From an uncultured bacterium (lineage in GTDB: Bacteria > Cyanobacteriota > Vampirovibrionia > Gastranaerophilales > Gastranaerophilaceae), in assembly GCA_902761735.1 (NCBI GenBank), contig CACWLL010000005.1, positions 35,639-99,638 of the forward strand: 64,000 nucleotides of DNA, in the 5' to 3' direction. A model generated the notes under the pieces. That model had not been told where the DNA came from. It saw only the letters and a program-made list of their open reading frames with translations, and ran no database searches. Position numbers and translations under genes: made by a program. The stretch's first letter is position 1; every line of letters starts with the position of its first letter. This document shows positions 4,167 through 52,785 of the stretch, piece by piece.

Positions 4167-4334
4167 ATTTTTCCCCTATTTTATCTATTAATTTAACTTT
4201 TGAACTTATTCTAACATAAATATCTCTTTTTTCAAACCTTATTTACAAAATGTAAAAACCGATAATGTTTTTTATTTCTTTAAATACTTTTATTCTTTTT
4301 TGTTATATAATCCTATTTAAAGGGAGATTTCATC

Positions 4335-5369
4335 ATGAATATAGATTGGCAGAATTTAGGATTTGGGTATATGAAAACGGATTACCGTTTTGTATCAAAC
4401 TTCAAAGACGGGAAGTGGGATGAAGGCAAAATGACAACTGATGATAAGGTTGTCATAAACGAGAGTGCCGGAGTTTTACAATACGCTCAAACTTGTTTTG
4501 AAGGAATGAAAGCATACAGGACTATTGACAACAGAGTTGTCTGCTTCAGACCTGATTTGAACGCATCAAGAATGGCTGATTCGTGTCGACGTCTTGAAAT
4601 GCCGGTATTTCCTGAGAACAGATTTATTGAAGCCGTAAAACAAGTTGTAGAAAAAAATATCGATTACGTTCCACCGTATGGCTCCGGGGCATCCCTTTAC
4701 TTAAGGCCATATATGTTTGGTTCAAATCCTGTACTCGGAGTAAAACCTGCAACAGAATTTGAATTTAGAATTTTTGCTTCACCTGTCGGACCATATTTTA
4801 AGGGAGGTGCAAAACCAATTATACTTAGAGTACCGGATTTTGATAGAGCAGCACCTTTGGGAACAGGACACGTTAAAGCCGGCTTAAATTACGCAATGAG
4901 TCTACACGCAATTGTTGATGCTCACAATCAGGGTTATAATGAAAATATGTATCTTGATTCCGCAACAAGAACAAAAATAGAGGAAACAGGAGGAGCAAAT
5001 ATTATATTTGTGACAAAAGATAATAAAGTTGTCACCCCAAAATCTCCAACAATTTTACCTTCAATTACAAGACGTTCGTTAATGGTAGTTGCAGAAAAAT
5101 ATCTCGGTTTAAAAACAGAAGAAAGAGAAATACATATTGAAGAATTAAAAGACTTCAAAGAGTGTGCCCTTTGTGGTACAGCAGCAGTGCTTTCACCTGT
5201 AGGCAAAGTTGCAGATCACGGCAAAGTTATAGAATTTCCTTCGGGAATGGAAAAACCCGGAGAAATTACGCAAAAACTATATGACACATTAACCGGTATT
5301 CAAATGGGGAAAATAGAGCCTCCTGAAGGTTGGATTTATGAAATTAAGCCTTCAGCAGTTTCAGTATAA
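4335..5369 (+). CDS. ilvE: branched-chain amino acid aminotransferase (class IV)
   Basis: 344 aa. FEGMKAYR, RPxxNxxRM and EETGGANIF-type blocks of fold-type IV BCAT. Confidence 0.9.
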   Translation: MNIDWQNLGFGYMKTDYRFVSNFKDGKWDEGKMTTDDKVVINESAGVLQYAQTCFEGMKAYRTIDNRVVCFRPDLNASRMADSCRRLEMPVFPENRFIEAVKQVVEKNIDYVPPYGSGASLYLRPYMFGSNPVLGVKPATEFEFRIFASPVGPYFKGGAKPIILRVPDFDRAAPLGTGHVKAGLNYAMSLHAIVDAHNQGYNENMYLDSATRTKIEETGGANIIFVTKDNKVVTPKSPTILPSITRRSLMVVAEKYLGLKTEEREIHIEELKDFKECALCGTAAVLSPVGKVADHGKVIEFPSGMEKPGEITQKLYDTLTGIQMGKIEPPEGWIYEIKPSAVSV

Positions 5370-5980: not shown

Positions 5981-6097
5981 AGTTGTATTTTAATGCCATT
6001 TCGAGAAAAATCAATCATCTTTTTGTGTGAAACTTGTCAAATTAGTATGTGTATGAAATAATAGGCATATAATTTGGAACAAAGCCAAGGAGAGAAT

Positions 6098-7894: not shown

Positions 7895-9202
7895 TTATGC
7901 ACCATGGCATTTTTTAAATTTCTTACCACTACCGCATGGGCAAGGGTCATTCCTGCCAATTTTTGATAAATCAATACCCTCAGGTAACGGCAGTTTTTCT
8001 TCTTCCTCTTCAATTAAACCTAATGTACTTGAAAAAGCTTTTGATTTATACAATACGGTAGTTGAAGAATAAATTTTCTGCTCAAGATATCTTGATTTAA
8101 ATTTTTCTAGCAACTCTTTTAAAGTATAATTAGTTTTACCTATACCATTTATTACCGGCAAGAAATTCTTATGCTTCTTCGCTGCACGTTTAATTAAATT
8201 TGCGGAGAACTTGTCATTAGTCAAAAAGTATCTGATACATTTATCATAATTTTCGACTTCGGAAGGGTTCTTTGCTTCAAAAATTTTATTAAATGTTCCC
8301 CAAAACGGTACCGCATACATCCCTAATTCTTTATCATAAATAATACCTACGTCATACGATTCCTTGTGAGAAGAAAACCCACCCAAAGAATTTTCCAGAA
8401 AATTATCATAAGAATTGTTGAACTCTGATACATTAAAGAATTTGTATTCTTTTGGTTCTTCTATCAACTTTTTGAAGCTGCCTTTCTTGCCATCTTCAGT
8501 AAAATCATTAAACTTACCGATTAAATCATCCGCATGCTTATTAATTGTAATAATTTCATCTTTACCAAAAAATTCGATGAACTTATCGTATACCTGTTTA
8601 ATATCCTCTTCGATTTCTTCTTGTTTTTTCGGGTTATCCTGATATACTATTTCCGGATTTTGAATAATTCTTGCAACAGAGAACCTGTAAGCATCATCAC
8701 GGCGCCTTGTCGGTAACACACCGGAGATTTCCAACAAGAAAACCTCGTCATCTTGTTTCATTATTCTTGCTACAACATACTGCCCCGAACCTAACCCTCT
8801 AAAGTTTGTCATTTTTATCAGCGAAGTTACATTATAACTCTTTTCATTAATAATATTGTATAATTCAAACCCGTTTTTAAGAACTCTTTTTAATTCAAAA
8901 ACAGAAGAAATAGATTTATCAAGATTTTTTACAATTTTCTTAATAGGAGCTTTTAAGTCGGCTCTTTCCAAATATATAGAAGGTATTGTTCTGTAAGTTT
9001 CGCCAAGTCGTCTTTCAAAGATATAATTAAAACATGCACTCTGGAAATTTACGGCAGACTTTCTGTTTGCTCCAATTGTTTTTATGTATTCCAGAAAATC
9101 TGGTCGCACACTTTCATCAGATTGAATAAACATTGCCATATCTTTAATAGTATTGTTTATATCTTGAATTATATCTTGAACATTGGTTTCTTTAACCGGC
9201 AT
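7895..9202 (-). CDS. SEC-C motif protein of unknown function, 435 aa
   Basis: C-terminal [15 protein letters not shown] is a SEC-C metal-binding motif. The rest was not recognised. Confidence 0.7.
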
Positions 9203-13159: not shown

Positions 13160-13199
13160 AATTCGCGTAAATTTTATATTCATATTATTTAATTTTAAC

Positions 13200-13217
13200 T
13201 ACGACTCTTTTTGTCGT
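13200..13217. repeat. left copy of an 18-nt inverted repeat (hairpin TACGACTCTTTTTGTCGT)
   Basis: Its exact reverse complement occurs at 16492..16509. Each copy is itself an ACGAC/GTCGT hairpin. Confidence 0.7.
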
Positions 13218-13252
13218 AGTTGTGTTATATTATGATAATATAAGGAGAAACA

Positions 13253-14218
13253 ATGTCGAGATTAAATAAAGCAAATGAAATTATAGAACTTGCAATTTTG
13301 ATGCAAAACAGTTATTGCGGTTTAACTTTAGATGATATTGCACATGAGTTTGAATGTTCTCGCCGCAGTGCAGAGAGAATGAAAGCTGTTTTGATTGAAA
13401 AATTTGGGAATAAAATTGAAGAAGTAAACAACGAAAAAGACAAGAAAAAACGCTGGAGATTTAAAAAAGGTACAATGAATTGGCTTATATATTTTACATC
13501 AAGCGACTTTGCAAATCTTGAACTTTGTAAAAAATCTCTTAAATCCCCGACAAAACAAAAAGAAATGGATGAACTTATTGAAAAAATCAAAGCACTTAAC
13601 CCTCAAAATGTTTCTAATGTTGATGTGGATGAAATTTTATCTACCCAAGCTTATGCTGTAAGACAAGGATTTAGAGAAAATATAAAACTTGAAACCTTGC
13701 AAATAATAAATGATGCAATTCTTTGTCAAAAACAAATTGTTATAAAGTATGCAGATATGGATAATGAATTTGCAATCAACCCTTATGGAATTTTACATTC
13801 CGACAGGGTTTATTTAATTGCTTACAATATTTTTGCTAATGCAATTTGGACATACAGAATTTCAAAAATTAAAGAAATAAAATTGACTGATAATTATTTT
13901 GATAAAGATGAAAGTTTCAATATGGAAGAATATTGTGCAAGGTCATTTGGAGTTTATCAGGGAGAAATTTTTGATGTCGTTCTGCAATTTGATAAAGAAT
14001 GTACAGATGATGCAAAAGAATACTTTTTCCATCCAACCCAAAGTGGGAAATTGAATGATGATGGTACTTACACTTTATCATTAAAGGCAAGCGGAGAATT
14101 TGAGATTATTACAGAAATTTTAAAATGGCGCAGCAGCGTAAAAATTCTCTCCCCTCAAAGTTTAAAAGATACTTATAACAAAACAGTAAAAGAAATGTAT
14201 AAACAGATAAAGGAATAA
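13253..14218 (+). CDS. WYL-domain transcriptional regulator (HTH-WYL-WCX architecture)
   Basis: N-terminal HTH (LTLDDIAHEFECSRRSAERM). Central WYL-like block (IVIKYADMDNEFAINPYGILHSDRVYLIAYN...WTYRISKIKEIKL). C-terminal extension. Confidence 0.8.
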   Translation: MSRLNKANEIIELAILMQNSYCGLTLDDIAHEFECSRRSAERMKAVLIEKFGNKIEEVNNEKDKKKRWRFKKGTMNWLIYFTSSDFANLELCKKSLKSPTKQKEMDELIEKIKALNPQNVSNVDVDEILSTQAYAVRQGFRENIKLETLQIINDAILCQKQIVIKYADMDNEFAINPYGILHSDRVYLIAYNIFANAIWTYRISKIKEIKLTDNYFDKDESFNMEEYCARSFGVYQGEIFDVVLQFDKECTDDAKEYFFHPTQSGKLNDDGTYTLSLKASGEFEIITEILKWRSSVKILSPQSLKDTYNKTVKEMYKQIKE

Positions 14219-14220
14219 CT

Positions 14221-14628
14221 ATGTTAATATGCGAAGATTTATTATGTATTTTGCAGGATAAATATAAAAATATTTCAGAAGAACTTTTTCCTGAACTAAA
14301 AAATGACAGTATTAAAAAAGGGTTTATCACTTTAGATAAAACCGATATAAAAAATGCTTTAATAAATAGTAAAAATTGTACTTTCAATGTTGTAAAATCA
14401 GAGAAAAAAGATGCATTAAATATATTTATAAATGCTTATAATATAGAAAAAACAAAAAATTTAATTTTATTTATCATGCATGATGAAAATTTAACATTAT
14501 ATGAAATCTCTGAAATAATCAGCTTCATAACAAAAAACATCAATCCTTCAACCTACGTTATTGTTTGCGATTTTATAGATAAATCAGTAAAAAATCAAAT
14601 AAAATTAGTATCACTCAATCTTGTATAA
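14221..14628 (+). CDS. small protein resembling the FtsZ C-terminal half (H7, T7 loop, C-terminal subdomain), 135 aa
   Basis: ATG lies 2 nt after the WYL stop. Near gap-free blocks align to this window's FtsZ: GFITLDKTDIKNAL vs [14 protein letters not shown]; NLILFIMHDENLTLYEISEII vs [21 protein letters not shown]; YVIVCDFIDKSVKNQIKLVSL vs [22 protein letters not shown]. Confidence 0.55.
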   Translation: MLICEDLLCILQDKYKNISEELFPELKNDSIKKGFITLDKTDIKNALINSKNCTFNVVKSEKKDALNIFINAYNIEKTKNLILFIMHDENLTLYEISEIISFITKNINPSTYVIVCDFIDKSVKNQIKLVSLNLV

Positions 14629-14638
14629 AGGAGGAATT

Positions 14639-15169
14639 ATGAAAAGAAAAAATAAATCAGATAAAAATTATAAAATATGGTTAGAAAATATAAAAAAAGA
14701 ACTTAATGAAAAAGAACCATTACTAAAAAATATTCCGGACATTGAAAAATGGAAAACCAGCCCGTCATCAGATATTGATACTCCGATATTAAAGAATGAA
14801 ACGTGGGTAAAAATTGAAGGTTCAGGGTTTACACGATATGAAATAAGCAGTTTAGGCAGAGTTAAATATCTTGGGAAAATTGTTCCTCAAAAAAATAGGA
14901 CTGAAAATGGTAAAGAATGTATTGGCTATCTGGTGTTAGATAAAGAAGCCTTTCAAAAAAAATATCCGAAAGCACCTTGCGGGTTTACCACAACAACACA
15001 TGTTTATTCTCTTGTTGCCTATGCATTTTTAGGGAAAAAAGAAAAAGACGGTTATCAAGTGCATCATATTACAAATAATGGTTATGATAATAGTATTGAT
15101 AATCTTGTATTATTAGACAAAGATGAACATTCTTTGATACACGGATTTAAAATTGGGACTTGGAAATAA
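14639..15169 (+). CDS. NUMOD4-HNH homing-type endonuclease
   Basis: AGGAGG RBS. WVKIEGSGFTRYEISSLGRVK (NUMOD4-like). GYQVHHITNNGYDNSIDNLVLLDKDEHSLIH (HNH). Confidence 0.8.
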   Translation: MKRKNKSDKNYKIWLENIKKELNEKEPLLKNIPDIEKWKTSPSSDIDTPILKNETWVKIEGSGFTRYEISSLGRVKYLGKIVPQKNRTENGKECIGYLVLDKEAFQKKYPKAPCGFTTTTHVYSLVAYAFLGKKEKDGYQVHHITNNGYDNSIDNLVLLDKDEHSLIHGFKIGTWK

Positions 15170-15197
15170 AAAGAGATGTTATGCCTCTGATTTATAA

Positions 15198-15557
15198 ACT
15201 GTATTTATAGGAAATGAAACACCGGAAATTGCGGAGGAACACTTACAAACAAAATTAAAAAATGCTGATTTTTGGCAATTAGTTGCTGATGAAGAACTAA
15301 AAACTGCAATGCAAATGGCAAAAGACACAATATAGATTATTCTGTAATACTCGGTAAAGCCGTTTTTATTTGAGGGACAAAAAATTGTTATATATAAAGA
15401 AATTTTTGAGCTATTGCAAACTCAGACCGGATACAATAAAATTGCAGTAATTGATTCAAATAAATTTTCGACAAACCTGCCTGCACCTTTAGATGAAATT
15501 ACAGAAAAAAGAAATAATAAAATTACAGACACAATAATTGAGTTTATTAATATATAA
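15198..15557 (+). pseudogene. probable decayed coding remnant (one frame broken by in-frame TAG and TAA, with no start codon)
   Basis: A 46-codon and a 68-codon open stretch lie in the same frame. They are separated only by TAG (15333) and TAA (15345). Neither has a usable start or RBS. Confidence 0.35.
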
Positions 15558-15580
15558 GAGAAAATAAATACTTCTTTGAT

Positions 15581-15781
15581 TTGTTTGAAAACTTTGAACA
15601 TTATGTAGATTTCTTTTATCTAAATGACTTATTAATAAATAACGATTATTCAAAAATTAATTTCTTTTTGCCTTTTGATAATTTTAAAAAAAATTCAAAA
15701 CCACAAGATACAACTGAATGGAAAGTCTTTTGTGAAAAGCAGATAGAATTTATAAAAGCTAGAAATAAAAGAATTAAGTAA
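15581..15781 (+). CDS. hypothetical 66-aa ORF (TTG start), possibly another remnant
   Basis: ORF only. Weak start context. Confidence 0.25.
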   Translation: MFENFEHYVDFFYLNDLLINNDYSKINFFLPFDNFKKNSKPQDTTEWKVFCEKQIEFIKARNKRIK

Positions 15782-15785
15782 TTTA

Positions 15786-16145
15786 CTATTCCATATATTT
15801 TTCTACGCAATTCCTTCTGTCGCATTCGTTTGTGGTAATTTTGTTGCAGTAGGTATTAATTTTTAATATAATTTCGTGGTCTTTTTTGTTGCGTTCATAA
15901 ATATAACCACGCACACAATTTTCAAAAGCTCCGTTTTGTGCGATATTTTGTGCAGTGCAATAGTCTGTACCATTTTTATAATTTATTTTCAACGACTTTG
16001 GAACAGAAATCTTCAAAGGTTCAACACTAACTTTTTCAGATTCATCTATCCTTGAATTATTATTTTGATTTGACTTATATTTCTCAAATGATTGAACAAC
16101 AAACAAAAATATAGAAATTATTATTATAATAAGTAAATTTTTCAT
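15786..16145 (-). CDS. secreted or membrane-anchored cysteine-rich small protein, 119 aa
   Basis: N-terminal hydrophobic helix MKNLLIIIIISIFLFVV. Six Cys in the C-terminal 60 aa. Confidence 0.55.
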   Translation of the reverse strand: MKNLLIIIIISIFLFVVQSFEKYKSNQNNNSRIDESEKVSVEPLKISVPKSLKINYKNGTDYCTAQNIAQNGAFENCVRGYIYERNKKDHEIILKINTYCNKITTNECDRRNCVEKYME

Positions 16146-16237
16146 AATTTTTCAAGGTATCTGTCACATTCATCAAATCCGGTAATAATTTTATTTTTGA
16201 TTTCAATCTGTCCGGAATTAAAATCAAATTTCAACAT
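16142..16237 (-). CDS. 31-aa micro-ORF translationally coupled on both sides
   Basis: Not in the supplied ORF track. MLKFDFNSGQIEIKNKIITGFDECDRYLEKL read on the minus strand. Its ATG overlaps the upstream TAA by 1 nt, and its TGA overlaps the downstream ATG (ATGA). Confidence 0.35.
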   Translation of the reverse strand: MLKFDFNSGQIEIKNKIITGFDECDRYLEKL

Positions 16238-16455
16238 TATAAGCCTCTTATTTCCGAATTAATTCTACGACATTCTTCAAGAGTTTCCTGCTTAATTTTT
16301 TCAGATTCGGTTTTAATACGTTTTAAAATTTCAGACTCATAAGTCATTTTCTGTGCTTTCAATTCTGCATCAGAAATAATCATTTCAGCTCTATCATATG
16401 CATCTTTTAAAATTTGTTTCTTCACTTTAAATAAAAATTTTCCGAACATTTTCAT
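16237..16455 (-). CDS. 72-aa coiled-coil protein
   Basis: Charged heptad-like sequence. AGGAG-type RBS upstream. Confidence 0.5.
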   Translation of the reverse strand: MKMFGKFLFKVKKQILKDAYDRAEMIISDAELKAQKMTYESEILKRIKTESEKIKQETLEECRRINSEIRGL

Positions 16456-16491
16456 CTCCTTATCTTCATATTTTAATTATAAGGGAGAAGC

Positions 16492-16509
16492 ACGACAAAA
16501 AGAGTCGTA
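16492..16509. repeat. right copy of the 18-nt inverted repeat (ACGACAAAAAGAGTCGTA)
   Basis: Exact reverse complement of 13200..13217. Confidence 0.7.
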
Positions 16510-16577
16510 ACGAGCTGCACTTAACCTACAACTTTTTCAATTTTACGATTCGGCATAATACGAAATATCCGCAAAAA

Positions 16578-31148: not shown

Positions 31149-33233
31149 CTATTCATTTACAATACCGAGTACACGAATAAACTCGTCTATTGTTGTCATA
31201 CCTCTTATAATATGTCCTTTGCATGATTCTGCAAGAGTTGTCATACCATTTTGGACAGCCAATTCTTCTATTTCCAAATCATGAGCACCCGTCGCAATCA
31301 ATTTTCTTATTGCTTTGTTAATTGTCATAATTTCATATATACCTAATCGACCTTTATATCCTGTAAAATTACACTTATTACAGCCTTTTGCTCTGTACAT
31401 AGGCGTCTTAATTAATTTTTCAATTTCCTCTTCATCTACAGTAATTCTTGAAACTTCTTCTCTTGTCGGGAAATATTCTTCTTTACAATCATCACACAAT
31501 CGTCTGACTAAACGTTGTGCTATTACACCTGATAAAGTTGAAGAAACCAAATAATCTTTAGCACCCATTTCCACCATACGAGTAACTGTTGCCGCAGCAG
31601 AATTTGTGTGGACCGTACTCAACACCAAGTGACCTGTTAAAGCGGCCGAAATAGCAATTTCCAAGGTTTCATAATCACGGATTTCACCAACAAGTATGAT
31701 GTCAGGGTCCTGACGAAGTATAGCTCTCATACATGATGCGAATGTGATACCTGCTTTTGCATTTATCTGAGATTGGTTAATACCCTCTAACTTAATTTCA
31801 ATCGGGTCCTCAATTGTAGTAATATTAACATCTTCATCATTTAAACTTTTTAATACTGAGTATAACGTCGTTGTTTTACCTGAACCTGTCGGGCCTGAAG
31901 TAAGGATAATTCCGTTAGGACAAGTAACCATATTTTTAATTTTTGCTATATCTTCTTCAGTACCGCCAACCAAACTTATATTTTTATCTGCAGCATTTAA
32001 AGACACAGCCGGTGCCAAAATACGAATACAAACCTTTTCTTTACCGGAAACAGGCAATGTGTTTATACGAAAGTCATAAGATTGGTTTTTATACTTTATA
32101 GAAAAAGTACCATCCTGAGGTCTTCTGTGCTCAGCAATATTCATTCTTGCCAATACCTTGAAACGAGATATTACGGAAGTTTCAACTTTAGACGGAATAT
32201 CAAGAACTTTTGATAACATACCGTCTTTTCTGTATCTTACAATATATCCTTCCAATCTCGGCTCAATATGGATATCCGAAACGTGGGTATCAATACCCGT
32301 TGTAATAATTTGATTTACAAATTTTGCGATAGAACCGCTTGATTCTTGTAATTCATTATCAACCTGTTGCCACAGAGATTCTTCAACCTGAAGAGCAGAG
32401 GTTTCATCTTCAATATCTTTAATTATTTTCTGAGTTTCTTTCTTATGCTCGGAAAAGAAAGTTTCCATACAAATTGTGAACTCATAGTGAGTCATCAATA
32501 ATTGCTTTGGATTTTGTCCCGTTAAATATATTACTTCTTTTAATACATCCGGTTTAACAGGAGAAACAACACCTATAATTAATGTTTTTCCATCAGATGA
32601 AACCGGAACAACTTTGTTATTTTTGATAAAATCCTCAGGTAGCAAACCGATATATGAGGATTGTTTTGATAACTGGTCAGCAGTTACAAAATCGTATCCT
32701 GTCTGAGCATGCAAAACCTCTTTTAACTGCTCAAGAGTAATAAACCCAAGCTTGAACAACATAGAACCTACAGGGATTTTCTGACGTTTACTTTCTGCTA
32801 ATGCCTGAAGTAATTGTACATCAGTAATATAACCCTTTTCTATAAAAAGTTCCCCTAATTTTGATTGTGGTTGATTTGCAACGTTAACACCGGAAGAAGA
32901 ACCACCACCAGTAAAAGCATCTTGAATATTTTGAGTAGCTTCATCAACGGTTTCCAATGGATTAGTAACAAAACCACCGGAAGGTTTCAAACTATCAATC
33001 AAATCTTCCAAATCCTTATCCGGAACCTGAATAAATTTTATAGGATACGAAAATTTTTGTCTTAATTTTTCATTAATAGTATCTTTATCAGATGTTGAAC
33101 CAATTGCCACAAACAAAAACTTGTCTTTTACACTGATAGGAACAAACTTATGTTGTTCCATCAGTGTTTTATCGACTTGATTTAAAATTTGCTTATTTAT
33201 ACTGTTTTTTAGTCTGTTTTGCAGTTCATTCAT
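31149..33233 (-). CDS. pilB: type IV pilus/T2SS assembly ATPase (GspE/PilB family) with extended N-terminal domains
   Basis: Walker A GPTGSGKTT, Asp/His boxes, tetracysteine CDDC...CNKC, and N-terminal T2SSE_N/MshEN-like repeats. Confidence 0.92.
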   Translation of the reverse strand: MNELQNRLKNSINKQILNQVDKTLMEQHKFVPISVKDKFLFVAIGSTSDKDTINEKLRQKFSYPIKFIQVPDKDLEDLIDSLKPSGGFVTNPLETVDEATQNIQDAFTGGGSSSGVNVANQPQSKLGELFIEKGYITDVQLLQALAESKRQKIPVGSMLFKLGFITLEQLKEVLHAQTGYDFVTADQLSKQSSYIGLLPEDFIKNNKVVPVSSDGKTLIIGVVSPVKPDVLKEVIYLTGQNPKQLLMTHYEFTICMETFFSEHKKETQKIIKDIEDETSALQVEESLWQQVDNELQESSGSIAKFVNQIITTGIDTHVSDIHIEPRLEGYIVRYRKDGMLSKVLDIPSKVETSVISRFKVLARMNIAEHRRPQDGTFSIKYKNQSYDFRINTLPVSGKEKVCIRILAPAVSLNAADKNISLVGGTEEDIAKIKNMVTCPNGIILTSGPTGSGKTTTLYSVLKSLNDEDVNITTIEDPIEIKLEGINQSQINAKAGITFASCMRAILRQDPDIILVGEIRDYETLEIAISAALTGHLVLSTVHTNSAAATVTRMVEMGAKDYLVSSTLSGVIAQRLVRRLCDDCKEEYFPTREEVSRITVDEEEIEKLIKTPMYRAKGCNKCNFTGYKGRLGIYEIMTINKAIRKLIATGAHDLEIEELAVQNGMTTLAESCKGHIIRGMTTIDEFIRVLGIVNE

Positions 33234-51573: not shown

Positions 51574-52785
51574 CTACTTCTTTAAGAAATCAGGAATTTC
51601 TATATTTGAAAAACCTGCTGAAGATGACGGCATTGAACTTCTTCTTGATGGAGTTGATGTAGAAGTGCTTGTAGAAGTACTTACACCTAATCCGCTTGCA
51701 AACGAGTTGTTTGAGAAGAAGTCATTTAACTTGCTAATATCAGGTTTGGCTGTTTGCTCAAGATTTTTCTTAACATCAAATCCTGTTGCAACAACCGTCA
51801 CACTGATAGAATTGTTTTGAATATTTTCATTAACTGCAGTACCGATAATAACTGTTGCGTCCTCAGTAACAGCATCGTGGATAATATTTGCTGCGTCTGA
51901 AATTTCGTGCAATGTCATATCAGGCCCGCCTGTAATATTAACGATAACACCTGTTGCACCGTTAATTGAAGATTCAAGTAATTGAGAGTTAATAGCAATT
52001 TCAGCAGCCTTAACAGCTCTGCCTTCACCTTGTGCAATACCGATACCCATTAACGCTGAACCTGAACCCTGCATTACGCTCTTAACATCGGCAAAGTCAA
52101 CGTTAATCATACCAGGAGTTGTAATGATATCAGAGATACCTTGAACACCTCTTAACAATACTTCATCAACAATCAAGAAAGATTCAGTTAATGAAACTTG
52201 TCTGTCAACTACTTGAAGTAACTTGTCATTTGGAACAACAATAACAGCATCAACACATTCTCTCAATTTTTCAAGACCTTGTTCTGCTTGATTTTGTCTT
52301 TTACGACCTTCCCAATTGAAAGGTTTTGTAACAACGGCAATAGTTAAAATCCCTAATTCTTTAGCAATTTTAGCAACAACAGGAGCTGCACCCGTACCGG
52401 TACCACCGCCCATGCCGGCTGTTATAAATACCATATCAGCGCCGTCCAAAGCCTCAGTGATTTCTTGTTGAGCCTCTTCAGCAGCCTTTTCACCAACCGA
52501 AGGATCGCCGCCTGCACCAAGACCTTCTGTAGACTTGATACCTAACTGAATTTTATTTTTTGTTTGTCCAAATTCCAAAACTTGTAAATCTGTATTCATT
52601 AACCAAAATTCAACACCGGACAGACCATTTTTAATCATTCGGTTAACAGCGTTACCGCCGCCGCCGCCAACACCGACTACTTTAATTTTTGTAGGGTTTA
52701 CACCACTTCTTGCCGGTAGTTCAGGAGCTGAACTTGTTTGAGTTTCATCTTTTTTCGCAAAGATATCTGATACGAAATTTTCCAC
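51574..52785 (-). CDS. ftsZ: cell division GTPase FtsZ
   Basis: [11 protein letters not shown] tubulin signature, T7 INVDFADV, Ser/Thr-rich linker and C-terminal peptide IEIPDFLKK. About 30-aa N-terminal extension. Confidence 0.97.

Follow-up and report, generated by a model that had tools for sequence, protein, structure and literature searches.

A stand-alone FtsZ C-terminal domain in a candidate DriD-type DNA-damage response module of an uncultured Gastranaerophilales bacterium

What use might a bacterium with a complete FtsZ have for a separate gene encoding only the C-terminal half of that protein? The question is raised by a locus in an uncultured member of the Gastranaerophilales, contained in a 64,000-nucleotide (nt) stretch of contig CACWLL010000005.1 (assembly GCA_902761735.1, positions 35,639 to 99,638), which we refer to as the window and number from its first letter. 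At 13253-15169, three tightly coupled plus-strand genes were identified from the list of open reading frames (ORFs) and from reading of the sequence; they encode a WYL-domain regulator, a protein corresponding to the C-terminal half of FtsZ (here termed half-FtsZ) and an HNH nuclease. An earlier note on this DNA had proposed that the three genes form an inducible switch over a division-arresting protein and a nuclease. That idea gains support from a regulator, operators and a promoter geometry that, on the evidence given below, appear to be of the type described for DriD, the single-stranded DNA (ssDNA)-activated WYL transcription factor of the SOS-independent DNA-damage response in Caulobacter (PMC10853764). 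We propose, with a probability of roughly 0.55, that the locus is a self-contained DriD-type response module for DNA damage (ssDNA) and that its half-FtsZ poisons the FtsZ of the host.

The WYL gene (13253-14218, plus strand, 321 residues) terminates in TAA at 14216-14218 and is separated by only 2 nt from the ATG at 14221 of the half-FtsZ gene (14221-14628, plus strand, 135 residues, TAA at 14626-14628). The HNH gene (14639-15169, plus strand, 176 residues) follows after a 10-nt spacer, with AGGAGG at 14629-14634 and its ATG at 14639. The coupling through 2-nt and 10-nt spacers was therefore as the earlier note had it, its ORF coordinates included. Its domain identities (WYL, FtsZ_C-like and NUMOD4-HNH) were likewise recovered by Pfam, though the FtsZ_C and NUMOD4 matches fall slightly under cutoff.

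The regulator matches the Pfam families WYL (1.1e-9) and WCX (6.3e-9), both above cutoff, and HTH_11 weakly. When it was compared by phmmer with all PDB sequences, the best match was C. crescentus DriD (E = 2e-26), residues 3-314 of the regulator aligning to residues 6-323 of the 331-residue DriD chain 9pfq_Q. The matches at E <= 1 comprised 8TP8/8TPK, 9PFQ/9PFV/9PGA and 7U02/7TZV, all of which are Caulobacter crescentus DriD (PMC10853764, PMC9186387, PMC13004042), together with 9CU3, deposited just as "WYL domain-containing protein", and three sub-threshold chance matches (E > 0.5). No structure of CapW, BrxR or PafBC was matched at E <= 1 in this search. The architecture, with its winged helix-turn-helix (wHTH) followed by WYL and WCX domains with a helical bundle, is like that of DriD (the class of ~320-330 residues). 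The recognition helix reads RRSAERMK in the regulator and RRTAERMR in DriD, and the wing KKRWR and TKRFR, respectively. The DNA-contact residues R36, R37, T38, R43, T61 and K62 of DriD correspond to R37, R38, S39, K44, K65 and K66, and R2 is kept and R8 lost. As judged from its sequence, the regulator is of the DriD type and not of the CapW/BrxR type.

The DriD consensus operator is ATACGAC(N7)GTCGTAT with an AT-rich spacer (PMC10853764). Such a box precedes the regulator gene at 13199-13219 (box 1, plus strand, core 13200-13218, cTACGAC-tcttttt-GTCGTAg) with no mismatch to the consensus core. A second lies at 16491-16509 (box 2, minus strand, TACGAC-tcttttt-GTCGTG) with one mismatch and a spacer identical to that of box 1; it forms the right end of the conserved block described below. 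Each box stands close to a start codon, 34 nt from that of the WYL gene for box 1 and 35 nt from that of a minus-strand gene of 72 codons for box 2. A candidate -10 element of the predicted promoter P1, TATTAT at 13228-13233 (plus strand), is found 9 nt past box 1, and that of P2, TATAAT at 16476-16481 (minus strand), exactly 9 nt after box 2. In both, the -35 position falls within the spacer of the box and is not -35-like, being CTCTTT in P1. In a 2026 cryo-electron microscopy study, promoters activated by DriD have no -35 element; the DriD site covers the -35 position instead, and its distance to the -10 element does not vary (PMC13004042). The box-to-(-10) spacing in the C. crescentus didA promoter oligonucleotide, as read from the oligonucleotide, is 9 nt, equal to that of P1 and P2 (PMC13004042). 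As predicted promoters, P1 and P2 share the activator-type geometry of DriD.

A box with up to two mismatches is expected by chance 0.72 times per 64 kb. By comparison, the composite of a box (at most one mismatch), 8-10 nt and TAnnnT occurs twice in the 64 kb and 0.02 times in shuffled sequences. A third box-like site at 33046-33064 (TACGAA-aattttt-GTCTTA), inside a T2SSE-family ATPase gene (31149-33233, minus strand), has two mismatches, both in the CGAC/GTCG core, and is probably a chance occurrence.

Both boxes are kept in four related loci from other genomes (L001, L006, L015 and L016; loci are given L numbers throughout), although the flanks are unrelated. Box 1 is identical in L006, L015 and L016 and differs by a single spacer change in L001, whose upstream gene is unrelated; the core CGAC-N7-GTCG of box 2 is retained in all four, and TATAAT recurs 9 nt from box 2 in L001, L006 and L016. 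In the distant locus L010, variant boxes (C/TATGAC-aaaattt-GACGTA) at 4232-4250 and 4730-4748 each lie 9 nt from a -10-like hexamer, so that the gap measures 9 nt in 10 predicted module promoters (two each in the window, L001, L006, L016 and L010). A terminator-like call at 13196-13222 coincides with the palindrome of box 1. The idea that it serves the permease gene upstream as an intrinsic terminator was rejected because the palindrome is kept in L001, where the upstream gene is divergent, is repeated at the other end of the block before a gene and fits the DriD consensus. The variant boxes of L010 precede WG_beta_rep-repeat proteins of 149 and 152 residues that head the operon there, and L013 also has a WG_beta_rep protein downstream; such proteins may be further members of the module in distant lineages.

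Half-FtsZ matches Pfam FtsZ_C at 2.2e-5 (25.1 bits, slightly under the 27-bit cutoff). A profile of its family, built from nine members and 136 positions long, was compared with the PDB and found essentially FtsZ only (E = 6e-10), positions 4-133 of the 136 aligning with residues 176-311 of Bacillus subtilis FtsZ; given this match to FtsZ structures, the FtsZ_C assignment is solid. An AlphaFold2 model of the protein has a mean predicted local distance difference test score (pLDDT) of 87.9 and a predicted template modelling score (pTM) of 0.83, and the top 50 Foldseek matches of the model are all FtsZ with a probability of 1.00. Half-FtsZ comprises helix H7 and the T7 loop together with the complete C-terminal (GTPase-activating) domain and ends at the last beta-strand, S10, without a C-terminal linker or membrane-tether peptide. 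It has no match to PF00091, no GTP-binding domain and no GGGTGTG signature. Lacking both the GTP-binding domain and the C-terminal tail, it is not a bona fide FtsZ.

What half-FtsZ retains is the bottom face of the subunit. The T7 loop reads GFITLDKTDI, compared with GLINLDFADV in FtsZ, and alignment of the family with Escherichia coli and B. subtilis FtsZ revealed the invariant residues G34, I36, K40, D42 and I43 (all in the T7 loop) and L93. The first, second, fourth and fifth of these are equivalent to G204, M206, D212 (the catalytic Asp) and V213 of the FtsZ T7 loop, and L93 to E. coli L272, a classic bottom-face residue. The motif NL[TS]L is common to the half-FtsZ family and B. subtilis FtsZ, and the position of T296 is occupied in the family by an invariant Asp. 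When 1.84 billion cluster representatives were searched exhaustively with HMMER, 8 relatives only were recovered, of which all but one 72-residue fragment are stand-alone proteins of 122-140 residues. Three relatives of 135 residues (P0009, P0016 and P0033) are labelled 'cell division GTPase FtsZ' by JGI, a mis-annotation that needs correcting, the GTPase domain being absent.

The full-length ftsZ gene of the host lies in the same window at 51574-52785 (minus strand), ~37 kb from the half-FtsZ gene and outside the module. It encodes 403 residues from a GTG start and possesses the GGGTGTG signature, a T7 loop and a C-terminal peptide, IEIPDFLKK; its relatives at ~78-81% identity are named Candidatus Gastranaerophilales. 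Half-FtsZ is only 24% identical to the C-terminal domain of this protein. The split between the two is therefore ancient, and a recent duplication of the host ftsZ as the origin of half-FtsZ is rejected on the same figure.

The third plus-strand product matches Pfam HNH_3 at 5e-8, above cutoff, and NUMOD4 at 8.9e-5 (23.1 bits, borderline against a cutoff of 23.4), and its HH...N...N...H motif is intact (VHHITNNGYDNSIDNLVLLDKDEHSLIH). Homologues adjoin the WYL/half-FtsZ pair in L001, L006, L019, L013 (two copies) and L010. Homology among these proteins is clear from their pairwise matches (E = 1.6e-29 to 5e-13), and HH..N..N..H is kept in all six homologues.

DNA comparison with related loci placed the limits of the conserved block at ~13182-16510, thereby including two more genes and both operator sites. 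The unit of the earlier note was correct as a three-gene operon and too small as a module, the second operator and the two further genes having been missed. Since the second, inward-facing operator would drive the two minus-strand genes, we regard the real unit as a five-gene block. The first gene of the minus-strand operon (16237-16455) encodes a coiled-coil protein of 72 residues that is conserved in the close clade only and resembles DivIVA weakly, below threshold (E = 4e-4; 20.6 bits, the cutoff being 28). The other (15786-16145, minus strand) encodes 119 residues that begin with a hydrophobic helix and include four cysteines that are conserved, hereafter the 4-Cys protein, which is membrane-anchored or secreted to judge from these features and has no Pfam match. 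It accompanies the module in five lineages, with homologues of 115 residues in L006, 99 in L001, 126 in L014 (34% identity, E = 8e-16) and 79 in L010, and a further one in L017; these are mutually homologous (E = 8e-16 to 2e-6). All five module genes are under purifying selection, the ratio of nonsynonymous to synonymous substitution rates (dN/dS) spanning 0.09-0.44. The regulator stands at 0.09 and the coiled-coil gene at 0.09-0.17, and the half-FtsZ, HNH and 4-Cys genes evolve faster, at 0.16-0.44. An Rfam scan of the block gave no match, and the window as a whole is AT-rich (GC ~30%).

The two operons converge on a spacer of ~600 bp (15170-15785) that is found in the window only; in L006, L015, L016 and L001 the ends of the HNH and 4-Cys genes abut or overlap with no spacer. 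No repeat, Rfam match or homologue in related loci was found for the spacer. Its reading frames are short or remnant-like, for example one with ...ETPEIAEEHLQTKLKNADFWQLVADEELKTAMQMAKDTI before a stop, and short ORFs occur at 15422-15601 (minus strand) and 15581-15781 (plus strand).

The association of the three families recurs well beyond the window. The WYL gene accompanies half-FtsZ in 7/7 lineages with readable context, and the HNH gene is present in all five lineages whose contigs are long enough (5/5). The nearest reference-genome loci belong to "Cyanobacteria bacterium UBA3301" and the rumen metagenome-assembled genome hRUG901. The order WYL, half-FtsZ, HNH is found in L006-9, L015 and L016 (half-FtsZ 82-90% identical to that of the window), L001-5 (67%) and L019 (48%), and in L013 (32%) with a second HNH gene following the first. 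L010 (31%) has the order HNH, WYL, 4-Cys (79 residues), half-FtsZ. In L014 (33%) the end of a WYL gene is followed by half-FtsZ and then by a convergent 4-Cys gene. L017, whose half-FtsZ is 35% identical to P0038, was recognised in a metagenome scan as a true locus, whilst L018 from the same scan proved to be a false positive, a membrane protein. In L017 the order is WYL end, a 205-residue ORF, half-FtsZ and then 4-Cys; the ORF (140-757, P0039 lineage) has no family match and overlaps the start of half-FtsZ by 25 nt. Given this conserved co-occurrence, the HNH gene is not an independent homing-endonuclease insertion without lasting linkage, a possibility that the earlier note had left standing. 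In L013 the WYL gene start (6027-6069) appears to have been called 14 codons short, as the in-frame upstream sequence MSTSKKLDEITKLA resembles the N-termini of other regulators; once extended, the gene runs into the end of a truncated gene on the minus strand, which looks by eye like the C-terminal half of an RsmI-type methyltransferase.

The block occupies four mutually unrelated contexts, in all of which the neighbours are housekeeping genes. In the window it is flanked by an AI-2E permease and a HAD phosphatase, in L006 and L015 by LepA and an AddB-like helicase-nuclease, in L001 by an esterase and in L016 by a threonyl-tRNA synthetase (ThrRS) and a ShlB-type outer-membrane protein. Comparison of L006 (4965-7556) with L016 (6965-9557) revealed blocks that are 97.6% identical between unrelated flanks, homology ending 14 nt beyond box 1 on one side and 1 nt beyond box 2 on the other. 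The confinement of this identity to the block suggests its recent relocation or transfer; no target-site duplication and no gene for a transposase, integrase or recombinase was seen at the block. Two damaged alleles were also found. In L016 (hRUG901, 8001-8421) an extra A in the A6 run (GAG-AAAAAA-GAT) of the half-FtsZ gene reduces the product to 73 residues (P0044), and in GCA_016648615.1 (P0037) a deletion joins half-FtsZ codon 47 to 4-Cys antisense sequence, the HNH gene being lost. These could represent real decay, homopolymer phase variation or assembly errors. Elsewhere in the window, a 435-residue protein encoded at 7895-9202 (minus strand) has as its sole family match a C-terminal SEC-C metal-binding motif (3e-11).

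How might such a block work? DriD and DdaA, a DriD-related regulator of Acinetobacter, are documented to switch on division inhibitors after DNA damage, and DriD also switches on the nuclease gene bapE. By analogy, a dimer of the WYL protein would bind the boxes at 13200-13218 and 16491-16509, each of which covers a -35 position and is followed after 9 nt by a -10 element. Binding of ssDNA from damage or stalled replication to its WYL/WCX domains would then lead it to recruit RNA polymerase. Two convergent operons would thereby be switched on, one encoding the DriD-like regulator, half-FtsZ and the HNH nuclease, the other the coiled-coil protein and the 4-Cys membrane protein. Induction would be self-reinforcing, as the regulator gene heads one of these operons itself. 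We infer ssDNA sensing, activation rather than repression, FtsZ binding with consequent division arrest, and both the activity and the target of the nuclease.

For half-FtsZ itself we tentatively propose, at slightly under even odds, that a stand-alone GTPase-activating domain serves as a damage-induced division inhibitor by mimicking the next subunit of the filament, its T7 loop entering the GTP pocket of FtsZ so as to cap or sequester FtsZ or to act as a GTPase-activating protein (GAP). Having kept the bottom face (the T7 loop and the equivalent of L272) and having no nucleotide-binding top face, it would dock on the top face of host FtsZ, where GTP is carried, either in monomers or at the ends of filaments. 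These would be sequestered or capped, since nothing can add onto half-FtsZ. The invariance of the key T7 aspartate means that it might be a free-standing GTPase activator; futile GTP hydrolysis by FtsZ would possibly be triggered, and Z-ring assembly and division would be blocked. The HNH nuclease would act on DNA in parallel, either in repair processing or in cleavage of chromosomal or foreign DNA, in a manner analogous to bapE.

Several observations weigh against this proposal. Only some of the DriD residues that contact ssDNA are kept: the regulator has Y166, Y187 and Y201 at the positions of Y168, Y192 and W206, and K202, R204, R178 and S172 are replaced by Ala, Trp, Phe and Asp (A197, W199, F173 and D170). 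The ligand could therefore differ from that of DriD; DdaA likewise lacks one of the ssDNA-contact arginines of DriD. No box was found in L013, even at three mismatches. The -10 element of P2 is a perfect TATAAT and that of P1 is possibly an extended -10, such that a protein bound at the -35 position could repress and the ligand would induce by derepression. In half-FtsZ, F210 of FtsZ is replaced by the invariant Lys and the equivalent of D209 varies between D and N, suggesting that the interface may have been repurposed; the 24% identity to host FtsZ counts in the same sense. In an FtsZ filament the growing end exposes the T7 loop and the shrinking end the nucleotide (PMC8936486, PMC9897490), and interface mutants suggest that proteins in which the bottom face alone works form the less toxic class (PMC8936486). 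Capping of the shrinking end might thus inhibit no more than weakly if neither sequestration nor GAP activity prevails, and given these mutants the potency of half-FtsZ would need sequestration, GAP activity or high induced levels. Finally, four unrelated contexts together with frameshift and deletion alleles make a pattern that is less usual for a core checkpoint than for accessory, defence or toxic modules.

That last pattern invites a reading as anti-phage abortive infection or defence, in which the WYL protein would sense ssDNA of phage replication or another nucleic-acid cue, half-FtsZ would arrest growth and division and the HNH nuclease would degrade phage DNA, host DNA or both, to the protection of the population. 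CBASS and BREX are under the control of WYL proteins from the same broad class, regulators of the DdaA type are known to govern defence together with the damage response, and the taxonomic distribution is very narrow. The discreteness of the block in its four contexts, the near-identity of L006 and L016 across the block only, the loss-of-function alleles and the faster evolution of the half-FtsZ, HNH and 4-Cys genes relative to the regulator would all suit such a system. We nevertheless consider it unlikely. The regulator groups by similarity with DriD and matches no CapW or BrxR structure, the promoter geometry is of the activator type, and every context consists of housekeeping neighbours (permease, aminotransferase, LepA, AddB-like, ThrRS, esterase) with no defence island. 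Moreover, when the three plus-strand proteins were compared by hmmscan with the models of PADLOC-DB 2.0, the system caller not being part of this comparison, no system-specific model was matched: the regulator found generic WYL models, half-FtsZ none, and the HNH protein gave weak matches to HEase (3e-3) and ZorE (0.049). An origin in phage or prophage was rejected, as two profiles found no half-FtsZ relative among IMG/VR viral contigs, PHROG matches are limited to the HNH protein (HNH-endonuclease families) and generic regulators, and no integrase lies nearby. The abortive-infection and selfish-cassette framings of the earlier note thus find no specific support in a DriD-type regulator, housekeeping neighbours and the absence of the family from these viral contigs.

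Were the block a selfish mobile cassette, the HNH protein would be its homing-type spreader, half-FtsZ and its partners an addiction or toxin-like element, and the boxes its terminal inverted repeats. The NUMOD4-HNH_3 architecture, the PHROG HNH-endonuclease matches, the insertion into four different contexts and a homology that, from one context to another, breaks off within 1-17 nt of the inverted boxes are what such a cassette would show. Yet the terminal repeats match the published DriD operator, lie 9 nt from -10 elements and face inward toward start codons, and homing requires homologous flanks, which are absent, as are a target-site duplication, a transposase and an integrase. Phage HNH genes are at most ~30% identical to the module HNH gene, whose position and copy number vary (upstream in L010, doubled in L013) around a constant WYL/half-FtsZ pair. 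With the terminal repeats being promoters of DriD consensus and the HNH position variable, the cassette becomes the less likely explanation, and we regard it as very improbable. A third alternative leaves the damage response in place and removes its target: the fold of half-FtsZ would, by exaptation, serve the HNH protein or another target as its partner, its inhibitor or a nucleotide-sensing subunit, giving damage-induced DNA processing without a checkpoint. The very tight translational coupling to the HNH gene and the constant co-occurrence of the two are in its favour, and the invariant F210-to-Lys and T296-to-Asp changes, with the low identity to host FtsZ, amount to substantial divergence of the interface. 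The invariant residues are, however, those that contact the nucleotide pocket of the next subunit (the T7 loop, including D212, and L272), and the order relative to the HNH gene is not fixed, with HNH upstream of WYL in L010 and an extra gene between WYL and half-FtsZ in both L010 and L017. This alternative we hold to be quite unlikely.

On the proposal that we prefer, a damage-induced module acting on host FtsZ, the closest known system is the Caulobacter DriD regulon. DriD activates didA (a division inhibitor), bapE (a nuclease), recA, recJ, dnaG and driD itself (PMC10853764). The resemblance comprises full-length homology of the regulators, which agree in their wHTH-WYL-WCX architecture and almost entirely in the recognition helix; CGAC-N7-GTCG operators with AT-rich spacers, including one before the regulator's own gene; boxes that cover the -35 position and leave 9 nt to the -10 element, with no -35; and outputs that include a candidate division inhibitor and a nuclease, the module also having a small membrane protein. 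Unlike the dispersed DriD genes of Alphaproteobacteria, however, the module is a single 3.3-kb block in Melainabacteria, several ssDNA-contact residues differ in its regulator, and neither recA nor any repair gene was seen behind a box within the 64 kb. The effectors show no sequence relationship, DidA being a small membrane protein that acts through FtsN, and BapE is not known to be an NUMOD4-HNH protein. A second parallel is DdaA of Acinetobacter, which activates aciT, encoding a small membrane-anchored division inhibitor, after damage (PMC13010146). DdaA-AciT (Acinetobacter/Moraxellaceae) shares with the module a DriD-related WYL activator, and DdaA replaces SOS and also controls anti-phage genes; the module box, in contrast, is of the DriD type at the -35 position, and AciT is unrelated to FtsZ.

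The proposed block of FtsZ polymerisation at the longitudinal interface would also liken half-FtsZ to SulA, MciZ, MinC and MipZ, of which SulA is also damage-induced. These four bind the C-terminal-domain (bottom, T7) face of FtsZ (PMC9897490, PMC8936486). Half-FtsZ, in contrast, presents a bottom face and would bind the nucleotide-bearing top face, and none of the four is homologous to FtsZ. A precedent for an FtsZ-derived domain turned into a direct negative regulator of FtsZ ring assembly is ARC3 of plant chloroplasts, a MORN fusion (bioRxiv 10.1101/2024.01.08.574726). ARC3, however, is eukaryotic and large, belongs to a Min-like positioning system, has an FtsZ-like region that is not a bare C-terminal domain and is not under the control of a damage sensor. 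The FtsZ C-terminal domain of Thermotoga maritima, expressed separately by Oliva, Cordell and Lowe in 2004, reportedly folds independently and constitutes the GTPase-activating half; it is said to have been a laboratory construct, neither a natural gene nor endowed with a regulatory role. With the NUMOD4-HNH_3 phage homing endonucleases of the I-HmuI type, the module HNH protein shares its Pfam domains and an intact HNH motif. It differs from them in its ~30% identity, in its lack of an intron, intein or phage context and of a C-terminal NUMOD3 or helix-turn-helix extension, and in being part of a regulated cellular module.

The earlier note did not recognise the gene combination as a described system, and it was right in this, no system-specific PADLOC-DB model being matched and no paper on it having been found. 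In our literature search, neither a natural protein consisting of the FtsZ C-terminal domain alone nor a module combining WYL, FtsZ and HNH genes was found described, and no case of DriD-type regulation came from outside the Proteobacteria. The logic of control has precedents; what is new is the effector and the compactness of the architecture. The module contains no gene for a partner GTPase domain, and if our proposal is true, half-FtsZ would be the first bacterial FtsZ inhibitor derived from FtsZ itself, a dominant-negative half representing a new mechanistic class. Every protein inhibitor of FtsZ known to us binds the C-terminal-domain face; half-FtsZ would be the first to attack the nucleotide (top) face and not the face used by SulA, MciZ, MinC and MipZ. 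It would thereby provide a natural probe of the FtsZ nucleotide face, relevant to treadmilling polarity and to antibiotic design. As half-FtsZ and its target FtsZ are both encoded in the window, this inhibitor class is directly testable in vitro. For the Gastranaerophilales, an uncultured gut lineage related to cyanobacteria, the proposal would mean that the DriD operator-regulator pair, with its exact operator and promoter geometry, and its checkpoint logic reach from Proteobacteria to the Cyanobacteriota/Melainabacteria.

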